Below, in pieces: positions 40,462 to 61,601 of a DNA stretch of 64,000 nucleotides; within the stretch, counting starts at the first letter, position 1; each line of letters begins with the position of its first letter. Source of the stretch: Candidatus Helarchaeota archaeon. GTDB taxonomy: Archaea > Asgardarchaeota > Lokiarchaeia > Helarchaeales > RDOG01. The DNA lies in contig JAHPZH010000006.1 of the NCBI GenBank assembly GCA_019058315.1, positions 192,001 through 256,000 on the forward strand, written 5' to 3'. The notes under the pieces were generated by a model. The model was given only the letters and a program-made list of their open reading frames with translations. It was not told the DNA's origin and searched no databases. Made by a program: the position numbers and the translations under genes.

Positions 40462-41748
40462 TTGAGTACGATTGCTGAAAAAATATTAGCATCACATTGT
40501 GACAAAGATATTGTTAAGTCAGGAGAATTTATCACCGCAAAAATTGATTTGATAATGTCTCATATTGGTACTGCGAAGGTAGTTATAGATTTTGGCAAGA
40601 TTAGACCTTCAAAAGTAAGGAGAGTATTCGATCCTGAAAAGATTGTTATATTATTCGATCATTATGTTCCTGCGCCGAACGAGAGGTGGGCTATGGCCCA
40701 TGGTCTCATCCGAAATTTTGTTAAAAAGCAAAAAATAAAGCATTTCTATGATATAAAGGCTGGAATTTGTCATCAAGTTCTTCCTGAAAAAGGTCATGTA
40801 AGACCTGGTATGTTGATCGTGGGCGGCGACAAATCATAATTTATATGATTTCGCTAGAGCCATACGACAACTTACGGAGCACTCAATGCTGCAAGTTGTG
40901 GATTAGGAAACACTGACCTCTTTTATGCTTATGTTAAAGGAGAATTATGGTTTAGAGTTCCAAGCTCTATCAAATTTAATATTAATGGCAAATTACCACA
41001 TCATGTAATGAGTAAGGATATCATATTAAAAATAGCAGGCGACTATACGGCAGAAGTAGCTACATATAAATCAATTGAATTTACTGGAAAGACTATGGAA
41101 GATTTATCGATAGCATCTAGGATAACAATGTCCAATTTTTCTCTAGAACTTGGGGCAAAGTTTGCATTTGGTGTTCCTGATCAAAAGGTTGTTAATTGGG
41201 TTAAAGCCAGAACAAATAAACCATTTGAATTAGTAAAACCAGACGAAGATGCAGTTTATGAAAAAACTTATGAGATGGATGTTTCCAATTTGGAACCTCA
41301 AATTGCCTGTCCGCATACAGTGGATAATGTAAAACCTGTGACGGAAGTACAAGGTACTAAAGTCCATCAAGCATTTCTCGGCTCATGTACTAATGGAAGG
41401 TTTGAAGACATAGAAATTGCAGCAAAAATATTAGAAGGAAATAAAGTGCATGAAGATGTTCGATTGATTGTTACTCCAGCAAGCCAAGAAATATGGCTTA
41501 AAATAGCAAAGACTGGTATAGCTGAAACGTTGATAAATGCTGATGCAATTATTTGTAACCCTAATTGTGGTGCCTGCTTTGGAGCCCATCAAGGCATGTT
41601 AGCACCTGGTGAAAATTGCATTTCAAGTTCAAATAGAAATTTCAGAGGTAGAATGGGATCAGAGAACGCAGGAATTTATCTGGGTTCTCCAGCAACTGTG
41701 GCCGCATCAGCTATTAAAGGAGTAATCGCTGATCCTCGAGAATTTTAA
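40462..41748 (+). CDS. leuC: 3-isopropylmalate dehydratase/homoaconitase family large subunit, two exons (40462-40830, 40858-41748; 419 aa spliced)
   Basis: TIAEKIL, FDHYVP, GICHQVLPE, GGD|SHTTTYGA restored by removing 27 nt, GSCTNGR, CGACFG, SSNRNFRGRMG, SPATVAASA. Confidence 0.88.
40831..40857 (+). other. Candidate bulge-helix-bulge (BHB) mRNA intron, 27 nt
   Basis: AAATCATAATTTATATGATTTCGCTAG with in-frame TAA, TGA, TAG; 4-bp helix GGCG/CGCU flanked by 3-nt bulges AC|A and AG|A. Confidence 0.8.
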
Positions 41749-41765
41749 AATATGAGGTGATTTGT

Positions 41766-42305
41766 ATGATGGAATTAAAGAAAGGTGAATATAAAGAACA
41801 AATTATTGGAAAAGTATGGCTATTCCCGGATAATGTTGACACTGACGTAATTTCACCTGGAAAATATTTAGATGATGTTAAAGCAACTCTTGAACATACT
41901 TGTGATACTATTATTAAGGAATTTCCAAGTGAAGTAAAAGAAGGAGATGTAATCGTTGCTGGTCGTAATTTTGGCTGTGGTTCCAGTCGTGAAACCGCTC
42001 CAATTATCCTTCGGGAAAAAGGGATTAATGCAGTAGTTGCTGAATCGTTCGCACGCATTTTCTATAGATCCTCATTTGCAATAGGTCTACCATTATTTGA
42101 ATTAGACGGGATATCAAAGGAATTTAAAACAGGGGATGAGATAGAAATCAATGTTTCTACAGCTGAAATTAAAAACAAGACAACAGGAAAAGCCTTTAAA
42201 ACAAGTCCTATTCCAGAACTCCTCATGGATATATTAAAAGGGGGAGGTTTGGAAAAAAAGTTATTACAAGAGCTCAAAGAAAAAGGCAAAGAAATGAAAA
42301 AATAA
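41766..42305 (+). CDS. leuD: 3-isopropylmalate dehydratase/homoaconitase family small subunit
   Basis: DNVDTDVI, AGRNFGCGSSRE, AESFARIFYR; ATG 41766 after GAGGTGA. Confidence 0.9.
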   Translation: MMELKKGEYKEQIIGKVWLFPDNVDTDVISPGKYLDDVKATLEHTCDTIIKEFPSEVKEGDVIVAGRNFGCGSSRETAPIILREKGINAVVAESFARIFYRSSFAIGLPLFELDGISKEFKTGDEIEINVSTAEIKNKTTGKAFKTSPIPELLMDILKGGGLEKKLLQELKEKGKEMKK

Positions 42306-42469: not shown

Positions 42470-44128
42470 ATGGTAGATAAAGAAAATGAAGAAAAAATAA
42501 GTGAAGATTTAAAAAAATGGGAGGAGAGTATTAAAAAATTTGATTTAAAAGATGTTGAAAATACTTCACATTTGAAAATTAAACCCATATATACCCCATT
42601 AGATGTAAAAGAGACTACATATGATGATATCGGCTTCCCCGGAGAATTCCCCTATACTCGAGGACCATATTCAACAATGTATAGGGGTAGAACTTGGACT
42701 ATGCGTCAATATAGTGGTTATCAGAATGCAAAATTAACTAATCAACGTTATAAGTTTTTAATTGAACAAGGTCAAACTGGATTAAGTGTAGCATTTGATT
42801 TGCCCACTCAAATGGGATATGATGGAGATCATCCCCTCGCTCAAGGAGAAATAGGACGAACTGGTGTTCCAATTTACACCTTAAAAGATATGGAAGACCT
42901 TTTTGATGGTATTCCTTTAGATAAAGTTAGTACATCTATGACAATTAACTCTCCTACTGCTATTATATTGGCTATGTATATTGCATTAGCTGAAAAGCAA
43001 GGAGTTACCCCAGATAAATTACGTGGGACTGTACAAAACGATATATTAAAAGAATATCTTGCCAGAAATACATATATTTTCCCTCCAGCACCTTCAATGA
43101 GGCTAGTTTCTGATGTGATTGAATATTGTTCAACAAATCTTCCTCGATTTAATACTATATCAATCTCAGGTTATCATATCCGAGAAGCAGGAGCTACTGC
43201 TGTCCAAGAAATCGCCTTTACCTTAGCAAATGCAATTGCATATGTCGAGGATGTTTTAAAACGAGGACTAGATATAGACCAATTTGCAAGCCGTTTATCC
43301 TTCTTCTTCTGTACTCATAATGATTTCTTTGAAGAAGTAGCTAAGTTCAGATCTGCTAGAAGGATGTGGGCAAAAATCATTAAAGATCGATTTAAAGCCA
43401 AAAATCCTAAATCAATGATGTTACGATTTCATACTCAAACTATTGGCTCCACATTAACAGCACAACAACCAGATGTTAATTTAATAAGAGTGGCAATTCA
43501 AACCCTAGCGGCTGTAATGGGTGGTGCACAATCACTCCACTCAAGTAGTCGTGATGAGGCTCTAAGTCTTCCAAGTGAAGAAAGTGTCCGGTTATCATTA
43601 AGAACCCAGCAAGTTATTGCTTATGAAAGTGGTGCAGTAAATGCTATTGATCCTCTAGGTGGTTCGTATTATTTGGAAAATCTAACAAACAAGATGGAAG
43701 AAGAAGCATTTAAAATAATTAAAGACATTAAGGCAAGAGGTGGGGCAATTAAAGCTATAGAATCGGGATATATTCAAAAACAAATACAAGATAATGCATA
43801 TAAAATACAGAAAGATATTGAAGATGGGAAACAAATTGTTATTGGTGTCAATAAATTTCAAATCAAGGATGAAGATCTTAAATTAGAAATTTTAAAAGCA
43901 GATCCTGAGATCCAAAAACAGCAAATTGAAAAATTGGAAAAAATTAAGGAATCTAGGGATAATAACCTAGTAAAAGAAAAACTAGAAAAAATTAAAGAAG
44001 TAGCAAAGACTAATGAGAATCTAATGCCCTATTTAATTGAAGCAGTAAAAGCTTATGCTACTAATGGGGAAATTTGCGATGTATTAAGGGAGATTTTTGG
44101 AACTTATAAATTAACAACTATTATTTAA
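42470..44128 (+). CDS. Methylmalonyl-CoA mutase, substrate-binding (large) subunit
   Basis: [54 protein letters not shown]; no B12 domain. Confidence 0.93.
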
Positions 44129-60581: not shown

Positions 60582-61601
60582 GTGATAAAAATTTTCATAA
60601 AAGAAAATTGCAATTATTGTGGCGATTGTCTAGCTCGTTGTCAATATTTAGGATATGATACTGAAAAAGCAATTGCAGAATTCAAAAAATTAGTGGATGA
60701 CCAAGAAACCCCTGTATTGAGTGATTGTGTCACTTGTTATGCATGTAACGAATATTGTCCCAAAGATGCAAACCCCTTTGACCTTATAGTCCAAAGACAA
60801 GAGGAACATAACTCAGTAAATATACCAGAAGGAATGAAACAGATGATTGCAGATCAACTTAAGCCTCCAGGTTTAAAAGGACCAATAGATACAGAAGGAA
60901 AGATGGTAATGTCAATCTGTGTATTTGCAGACCATCCTAAATTCTATGAAGGACAATTATTTAAAGATTTAAAGTTAATTAGCGGTCGAAATTTTTTCTG
61001 TAATCTTTTATATCTTCATACTGGTCAAGAATCTGTAATAAAACAAAGAGCTCAAACCATAATTGACAATCTTGCAAGTCTAAATGTTCCCGAAATTATT
61101 TTCTTCCATGACGAATGTTATGCATTCACGACAAAATATGCACCAGGATTAGGAATTAATGTCCCATTCAATTCGATTCATCTTTACGAATATCTTTATG
61201 GTTATCTAAAACATAATAAGGATAAAATAAAGAAGCTTGGGCTGAAGATAGCATTACAAAGGTCATGTTCTAACAGGTTTAACCCCGAAGTCGACCATTT
61301 TGTTGATGATATCTGTGAGCTTATTGGTGTTGAGCGAGTTGCACGAGAATATGATCGTGAAAATGCATTATGTTGTACTGCCCCTCAAGGTCAGTTAGGG
61401 AAAGGCGATATGGCAAAGGAAAATATTAAGCGAAATATGGATGATGCTGTAAAACATGGAGCACAAGCTATGGTTACCATGTGTCCAATGTGTTATGATA
61501 CTTTAAAACGCCCAATTAGAAAAGCTGGAATGAAAAAGCTTTTCATCCACGAACTAGTTAGATTAGCATTGGGTGAGCTTGATTTCGAGACTTTAAAATA
61601 A
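60582..61601 (+). CDS. Fe-S oxidoreductase (HdrD/GlcF-like, CCG domain)
   Basis: CNYCGDCLARC, CVTCYACNEYCP, LCC, CPMC. Confidence 0.85.
   Translation: MIKIFIKENCNYCGDCLARCQYLGYDTEKAIAEFKKLVDDQETPVLSDCVTCYACNEYCPKDANPFDLIVQRQEEHNSVNIPEGMKQMIADQLKPPGLKGPIDTEGKMVMSICVFADHPKFYEGQLFKDLKLISGRNFFCNLLYLHTGQESVIKQRAQTIIDNLASLNVPEIIFFHDECYAFTTKYAPGLGINVPFNSIHLYEYLYGYLKHNKDKIKKLGLKIALQRSCSNRFNPEVDHFVDDICELIGVERVAREYDRENALCCTAPQGQLGKGDMAKENIKRNMDDAVKHGAQAMVTMCPMCYDTLKRPIRKAGMKKLFIHELVRLALGELDFETLK

Follow-up and report, generated by a model that had tools for sequence, protein, structure and literature searches.

The closest described counterpart of the element reported here is the bulge–helix–bulge (BHB) intron in the pre-mRNA of cbf5, the pseudouridine synthase gene of Crenarchaeota (Watanabe et al. 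2002; Yokobori et al. 2009, PMC2738675). In the literature that we searched it is the only BHB intron within a coding sequence, in line with an initial annotation of the present locus that had named cbf5 as the main known mRNA case. A second mRNA intron of this type, in HVO_1309 of Haloferax volcanii, lies in the 5′ untranslated region (UTR) and has been verified in vivo and in vitro (Schwarz et al. 2020, PMC7714728). As for stable RNAs, tRNA introns are many in Asgard archaea, with repeated independent gains (bioRxiv 10.64898/2026.10.13.758758). Here we describe a 27-nt insert in a 64,000-nt stretch of the genome of a Candidatus Helarchaeota archaeon (assembly GCA_019058315.1, contig JAHPZH010000006.1, positions 192,001 to 256,000; hereafter the window, with positions counted from its first letter). 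The insert interrupts the coding sequence of a dehydratase large subunit of the LeuC/HacA family (hereafter leuC), and we consider it likely to be an archaeal BHB intron of the tRNA type.

A 27-nt insert within the catalytic motif of a LeuC/HacA-family gene

In the table of open reading frames (ORFs), leuC appears as a 125-aa ORF (40462–40839) and a 246-aa ORF (41008–41748) lying in one frame. The insert (Table 1) consists of nine codons, among them in-frame TAA, TGA and TAG; it follows GAC (40828–40830), precedes AGC, and separates the Asp codon of the catalytic GGD|SHT motif from the Ser codon, leaving both whole. Read through, the frame gives ...LIVGGD-KS*FI*FR*-SHTTTYG..., with stops as asterisks. 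Deletion of 40831–40857 joins GAC to AGC and yields ...LIVGGD|SHTTTYG... within a 419-aa protein (123 + 296 residues) that aligns with its orthologs without a gap. In tblastx comparisons with close ortholog loci, the match stops at 40830 and restarts at 40858 with contiguous ortholog coordinates, so that the insert comprises exactly these 27 nt. The first in-frame ATG, GTG or TTG of exon 2 does not occur before 41008. Because no in-frame start codon lies between 40858 and that position, exon 2 could not be made whole as a separate protein, and a separately translated C-terminal piece is without SHT and ~50 further residues.

With respect to the identity of the gene, the read-through protein, including the nine extra positions, scores 548 bits against NF001614 (aconitase/3-isopropylmalate dehydratase large subunit family) and 525 bits against TIGR01343 (hacA_fam). 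Because the LeuC and HacA equivalog cut-offs are not reached, we name the gene only as a member of the LeuC/HacA family. An intact small-subunit gene follows in the same operon, 8 nt 3′ of the large subunit. The initial annotation had read a leuC-like gene, split by annotation, in a probable Asgard archaeon, and each part of this description stands: the product is an aconitase-family large subunit of LeuC/HacA type, its 125-aa fragment is on record as such (P0004), and the closest ortholog belongs to Candidatus Helarchaeota, with the other close ones in Promethearchaeota.

In the RNA, a 4-bp central helix is formed by GGCG (40825–28) with CGCU (40852–55) and is flanked on opposite strands by the bulges ACA (40829–31) and AGA (40856–58). 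The intron hairpin has 7 bp (40832–38 with 40844–50) plus an extra U at 40851, and the exon–exon helix joins 40812–24 with 40859–71 with two single-base bulges. All of the helices and bulges named in the initial annotation, as well as the extra U, are present. RNAfold assigns the segment 40805–40878 an energy of −27.5 kcal/mol, compared with −13.2 ± 2.5 kcal/mol in 200 shuffles, none of which was as good (z = −5.8). Were each bulge cut after its second nucleotide (C40830 and G40857), the product would be GAC|AGC, restoring GGDSHT with no residue gained or lost, as had been claimed. Since A40831 and A40858 are the same base, shifting both cuts by one position in the 3′ direction would leave the mRNA unchanged. 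The predicted spliced junction is GGCGGCGAC-AGCCATACG.

Such a register seldom arises by chance. Specifically, when shuffled inserts or random genomic 27-mers were placed in the native exon context (200,000 trials each), an exact-register BHB with an inner helix of at least 7 bp appeared 18 and 19 times, respectively (~1e-4), and one with an inner helix of at least 4 bp appeared 310 and 203 times (~1–1.5e-3).

The structure also bears on whether the RNA is cut at all, as translational bypass would instead have the ribosome hop over the 27 nt of an uncut message, as in phage T4 gene 60 or the byps of yeast mitochondria. There is a superficial likeness to gene 60, in that the insert is short, forms a hairpin and has a stop near the take-off point. 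Yet the take-off codon is GAC while TAG precedes AGC, the stop stands two codons after the take-off codon and is not adjacent to it, every base of the structure agrees with an EndA substrate, and two sister inserts in the same genome, 29 and 31 nt long (see below), follow the BHB cutting rule. Because a matching landing codon is absent, we regard bypass as very hard to credit.

For the BHB intron we infer cleavage and ligation of the leuC mRNA by the following route. In the pre-mRNA, the exon ends would pair together and exon 1 would pair with the 3′ end of the intron, leaving two bulges with the 4-bp helix between them. The splicing endonuclease, apparently an alpha-beta heterotetramer, would cut after C40830 and G40857, and RtcB would then join the exons and probably circularise the 27-mer. 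Spliced mRNA would encode the intact 419-aa enzyme, whereas nothing more than a 125-aa fragment without the active site could be made from unspliced mRNA.

Table 1. Features of the leuC locus (window positions) and loci of a related insert in five other species
Feature	Position	Strand	Remarks
LAGLIDADG gene, 632 aa	38421..40319	-	divergent to leuC; PF14528; homologs inside rRNA genes
Exon 1, LeuC/HacA-family large subunit	40462..40830	+	TTG start, 123 codons, C-terminus ...LIVGGD
Whole BHB structure (predicted)	40812..40871	+	RNAfold z = −5.8; exon–exon duplex −18.5 kcal/mol
Codons GGC GGC GAC	40822..40830	+	rare synonymous choices; third-position C of 40824 and 40827 in G-C pairs
BHB intron (likely), 27 nt	40831..40857	+	three in-frame stops; single occurrence in genome
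Exon 2	40858..41748	+	296 codons + stop, N-terminus SHTTTYG
LeuD/HacB-type small subunit, intact	41757..42305	+	TIGR02087, 167 bits, over cut-off; 8 nt 3′ of large subunit, same operon
Insert in LeuC/HacA paralog, five species	L149-L153: G083:C181, G103:C68, G066:C254, G098:C138, G075:C1

Exon sequence, the DNA record and distribution among relatives

The codons that end exon 1 appear to be fitted to the RNA structure. GGC accounts for 8% of Gly codons in this genome and GAC for 15% of Asp codons, such that the run GGC GGC GAC has an expectation of ~0.001; relatives use GGA, GGT or GGG followed by GAT at the same codons. Two of the three third-position C's pair with G, C40824 within the exon helix and C40827 within the central helix. 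Moreover, the duplex of exon 1 with exon 2 reaches −18.5 kcal/mol, compared with a mean of −7.4 and a best value of −13.6 kcal/mol in 25 intron-less homologs that encode a near-identical peptide.

The exons themselves are well preserved. Apart from the insert, the 1260 nt of this gene (30% G+C) contain neither stops nor frameshifts. Alignment of 14 orthologs gives 167 invariant columns; the protein matches 163 of them, and its four changes are conservative. In a leave-one-out test, intact orthologs differed at 0–5 invariant columns. Relaxed selection on the exons, which the initial annotation had named as an observation that would speak against an intron, is not seen, and by these measures the sequence bears no mark of pseudogene decay.

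The presence of the 27 nt in the organism's DNA is attested by the Logan contigs of the probable source run, which hold all 93 sampled words (31-mers) of the stretch; the insert sequence is not peculiar to one assembler. The assembly is a single metagenome-assembled genome (MAG), and among the contigs listed from four DNA runs, including the source run, none spans the site, as might be the case if the insert were an artefact of assembly or sequencing. Against such an artefact stand the independently assembled source-run contigs with all of the sampled 31-mers, and neither an exact-register BHB nor tuned exon codons would be expected of it. A 245-nt contig from another study's run, 95% identical, ends 11 nt inside the insert and gives a further hint, though only a hint; in another contig, 92% identical, the alignment starts exactly at 40858 with 6 letters unaligned, which is likewise a hint only. 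Taken together, these observations make an artefact exceedingly unlikely.

Several findings weigh against a working intron in leuC. In terms of structure, the minimum-energy fold pairs A40829 with U40851 to give a 5-bp helix and a 5′ bulge of 2 nt instead of 3, and the strict form with a 4-bp helix and a 3-nt bulge requires an unpaired U40851 opposite the 5′ bulge. With respect to the RNA record, the sequencing runs listed as containing the locus include no RNA run, and because of this splicing is inferred, not seen. In terms of distribution, the insert is present at this site in none of 40 relatives (whose orthologs have 65–81% identity and no internal stop), in none of seven metagenome contigs at 76–82% identity and in none of five close named MAG loci, of which the closest, at 84% identity, is from a Candidatus Helarchaeota archaeon and the others are from Promethearchaeota/Promethearchaeia. 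As no examined relative carries the intron, no covariation can be counted for it. Finally, the genome holds an intact paralog of the large subunit with 52% identity (G000:C5:765476-766720), and loss of the split copy might therefore be tolerated.

As to the structural point, the fold is a near-canonical, mildly relaxed BHB: its 5′ side is relaxed, and its 3′ bulge and 4-bp helix are canonical. The remaining points could also be accommodated by a young pseudogene, in which a BHB-shaped or chance insertion in one of two paralogs is unspliced or poorly spliced and the gene is decaying. The restriction of the insert to one genome among the relatives examined, the intact paralog and the lack of an RNA run containing the locus are all in keeping with this account, and a homolog in genome G026 with a plain in-frame TAA indicates that broken copies of the family do occur. 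A decaying gene would not readily explain, however, why there is no second lesion in 1260 nt, why conserved columns are kept as in intact orthologs, why the helices are built by rare synonymous codons, or why the small subunit is intact and relatives retain both paralogs. In addition, the cell likely needs to remove inserts of the same type from its RNase Z and elongation factor 2 (EF-2) messages. We thus judge a pseudogene to be improbable. A working intron is favoured because the codons are tuned, the exons are undecayed and the EF-2 and RNase Z inserts probably need removal.

The 5.79-Mb genome contains no second copy of the intron sequence. Among species-genome loci, which are mostly distant homologs, 76 of 80 have a contiguous GxDSH motif. 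In 300 genomes of the phylum (~150 listed of ~310 matches), the stop-bearing homologs that were examined have their stops elsewhere. Since no examined ortholog or homolog has the insert, the leuC intron is a lineage-specific, recent gain.

A number of other interrupted copies were considered and set aside. The G026 homolog (L156, G026:C85:8900-10390) has a single in-frame TAA (IREG*IEIF); an intron was rejected in this case in favour of a point stop or sequencing error, since the length is unchanged. For the homologs in G147 and G120, the flagged stops proved to be upstream of the gene and not internal. A search of 5.8 billion proteins was made for N-terminal fragments ending at G-x-D. Its two best candidates, metagenome contigs with what looked like a split at the same site, were likewise rejected: in one (L035 3300-3480) TGA replaces the Ser codon of GTDSHT and there are further breaks, and the other (L036 3300-3480) has an internal deletion of ~80 codons.

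Further coding-sequence inserts and the splicing enzymes

The same genome carries BHB inserts in two other protein genes, both outside the window, which bears out the suggestion in the initial annotation that more such introns may exist. The first is a 31-nt insert at DTPGH|VD in an EF-2 gene (G000:C6:81229-81259, minus strand). The two halves of this gene match positions 2–97 and 96–515 of the aEF-2 profile and are thus contiguous across the insert, and their summed aEF-2 score is the higher of the genome's two EF-2-like genes. The EF-2 gene of G001, which belongs to the same family but to another genus, is interrupted at the same junction by 33 nt (L247, G001:C23, ~61503-61535). There the inner hairpin is completely unlike that of the 31-nt insert and the central helix is GGUC/GACC, but the BHB geometry is kept; in the other relatives searched, EF-2 is uninterrupted. 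The second is a 29-nt insert at DCGE|GTQ in an RNase Z gene (G000:C6:64108-64136, plus strand). The split gene is the genome's only RNase Z match over the family cut-off, with contiguous profile matches (1–37 and 37–300), and its insert is found in none of 14 relatives, G001 included.

These two inserts speak directly to the register of cleavage. Cutting after the second bulge nucleotide restores both DTPGH|VD and DCGE|GTQ, and other registers would break both frames because the inserts are 31 and 29 nt long. They validate the cutting rule applied to leuC. Both EF-2 and RNase Z are probably indispensable, and the cell would probably have to splice their mRNAs. The lineage seems to have gained mRNA introns recently, because the RNase Z and leuC introns are missing from relatives.

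An insert of this type also occurs elsewhere in the leuC family. In five species of another Asgard genus (Table 1), a LeuC/HacA paralog has an in-frame BHB insert of ~30–33 nt with stops, located after ...VHEMLG at a conserved position. Its fold comprises the exon helix AUGC/GCGU, the central helix UCGG/CCGG and the bulges AAA and ACU, and its removal yields HEMLGMRIAQIY, free of gaps relative to intron-less homologs. Across the five, 95% of pair cells are paired, compared with 18–44% with slid partners, and one pair is changed on both sides; the shuffle control is weak at n = 5 (96 of 500).

The whole genome was also scanned for BHB structures that, once excised, leave two open frames fused. 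The inserts in leuC, EF-2 and RNase Z were all retrieved in this way, along with a likely intron in a helix-turn-helix (HTH) gene. The scan returned ~4,100 candidates, with no excess over controls in which the 3′ cut was shifted by −1, +1 or +2, even with strict filters. It yields no intron count, because the controls are not exceeded and adjacent genes swamp the scan. The HTH-gene candidate is a 33-nt BHB insert (G000:C5, from 499169, plus strand) with the central helix CUAG/CUAG and a 9-bp inner helix; its removal joins ...GVSQSLIAR|IETGSVDARL..., which resembles an XRE-type HTH motif.

The initial annotation had proposed splicing by EndA and RtcB, and the genome indeed encodes two EndA paralogs and one RtcB (G000:C5:272272-273576). 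Both paralogs are PF01974 genes with the EndA catalytic-domain fold, of 184 aa (G000:C12) and 201 aa (G000:C1). The 184-aa protein has the stretch GPGIDHAPF with the catalytic His, and its best match among solved structures is the Aeropyrum pernix EndA chain 3P1Z_B (4e-45), which we take to be the catalytic alpha subunit of a heterotetramer. The 201-aa paralog has a Pro where, in the alignment, the Methanopyrus kandleri chain 5X89 has its His. The pair apparently fits an (alpha-beta)2 enzyme. EndA of this type is reported to accept relaxed motifs (PMC5829648), and two paralogs have been reported, and the same enzyme type inferred, in 44 of 60 Asgard genomes (bioRxiv 10.64898/2026.10.13.758758).

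With respect to the tRNA substrates of the genome, ARAGORN reports only 27 tRNA genes in the 5.8-Mb sequence. Of these, 12 have introns, and many lie clustered at ~627–632 kb of one contig; this suggests that many tRNA genes are too heavily interrupted to be detected.

Neighbouring genes and comparison with known systems

Downstream of the leuCD-like pair, the window contains a 552-aa gene (42470–44128) resembling the large subunit of an acyl-CoA mutase of the methylmalonyl-CoA type. The order of pair and mutase-like gene is also kept in the closest relative, G001, and hints that the pair has a role other than classical leucine synthesis.

On the other side of leuC lies a divergent gene for a 632-aa protein. 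After an N-terminal extension of ~290 aa, residues ~290–535 make up a LAGLIDADG endonuclease domain of the double-motif kind that contains a Cys4 insert. The match to LAGLIDADG_3 (PF14528) is 25.2 bits, just over the cut-off of 22.5, and the motifs are LLTDGN and SSTEGS. An AlphaFold model (pLDDT 83) matches I-LtrI, I-OnuI, E-DreI and I-Tsp061I with probability 1.0. These are monomeric double-motif meganucleases, of which I-Tsp061I is archaeal and intron-encoded. The protein thus has the motifs of a LAGLIDADG homing endonuclease and, in the model, the double alpha-beta-beta-alpha-beta-beta-alpha fold.

A word-indexed search for relatives of the 632-aa protein returned only the protein itself. 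An exhaustive search gave 54 relatives, mostly of 210–300 aa and aligned to residues ~290–535; they have in common the motifs LLTDG and S-x-EG as well as an insert with four Cys. Three contigs from this search were too short for genomic context. The best members in the phylum lie inside 23S rRNA genes (L124 G077:C5:336678-337436; L126 G291:C11:4102-4803), and a further one (L127, G060:C142) adjoins 16S rRNA sequence. These rRNA-gene members are presumably endonucleases encoded in rRNA introns. Within the genome under study there is a second free-standing member (G000:C5:411378-412127; L143 955-2409), a protein of 484 aa with its own N-terminal extension and most Cys ligands missing. It adjoins an intact gene of 988 aa that resembles an aminoacyl-tRNA synthetase, and no split gene is seen nearby. 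Nor is there a convincing BHB-split gene near the other LAGLIDADG_3 matches in the genome.

The proximity of the two elements raises the question of collaborative homing, in which an ORF-less intron is paired with a free-standing homing endonuclease, an arrangement described in T4-like phages and cyanophages (for reviews see, e.g., PMC3984707 and PMC2790892). Applied to leuC, the endonuclease would cut the conserved GGDSHT-coding site of intron-less alleles, the BHB intron would split the target site and thereby protect its carrier, and repair would copy both parts. The 632-aa gene, like the intron, is present in none of 40 relatives, and only a single genome has both. No LAGLIDADG gene of this kind adjoins the EF-2 or the RNase Z intron, and sliding-window identity relative to nine orthologs revealed no foreign co-conversion tract around the leuC intron. 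Because the two parts co-occur in a single genome and the EF-2 and RNase Z introns are without such a neighbour, the link is only a hypothesis, and we hold it to be rather doubtful that intron and LAGLIDADG gene form a two-part mobile unit for the collaborative homing of an archaeal BHB intron in a protein gene. If this were true, it could help to explain the gain of the leuC and RNase Z introns that relatives lack.

In terms of broader significance, leuC would be a central-metabolism gene of an Asgard archaeon that is readable only after tRNA-type splicing, and the same would apply to RNase Z and to the better-scoring EF-2. EndA and RtcB thus have the appearance of a genuine system for splicing mRNA in the prokaryotes most closely related to eukaryotes, which is relevant to the question of how protein genes first tolerated introns. 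The unconventional, RtcB-dependent splicing of HAC1/XBP1 offers a comparison system. The leuC intron is young and may serve as an example of a fresh gain in which the exon codons are tuned to the RNA structure. On a practical level, BHB-interrupted genes are divided or labelled as pseudogenes by gene callers, and metabolic reconstructions from Asgard MAGs may under-count pathways as a result.

Compared with the systems described to date, the leuC intron is closest to that of cbf5. Both are short, ORF-less BHB introns in a coding sequence and substrates of the tRNA-splicing endonuclease and ligase (splicing being predicted in the case of leuC), both have hosts with an EndA of the (alpha-beta)2 type that accepts relaxed motifs (apparently so in the leuC host), and both show lineage-specific gain and loss. 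They differ in that cbf5 encodes an RNA-modification enzyme of Crenarchaeota, whereas leuC encodes a metabolic dehydratase of an Asgard archaeon. The leuC intron is also in frame (27 nt), sits within a catalytic motif, was found in only one lineage and is one of several mRNA introns predicted in its genome. Its mechanism is of the cbf5 type, but it is not homologous to the cbf5 intron, as the host gene differs. The HVO_1309 intron is likewise a case of an mRNA serving as substrate for the archaeal splicing endonuclease; there, however, the intron is in the untranslated leader and leaves the reading frame uninterrupted. With the BHB introns of archaeal tRNAs and rRNAs, the leuC intron shares the recognition motif, the enzymes and, together with the RNase Z intron, a pattern of independent gains, whereas the hosts of those introns are stable RNAs and the Asgard preprint never mentions mRNA. 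Finally, the arrangement at leuC is similar to phage collaborative homing in that an ORF-less intron in a highly conserved coding site has a separate gene of a homing-endonuclease family close to it, with intron and gene both found only in this genome among the relatives searched. In the phages, by contrast, the introns are self-splicing group I introns, whereas here a BHB intron is linked to the LAGLIDADG gene only by co-occurrence in one genome.

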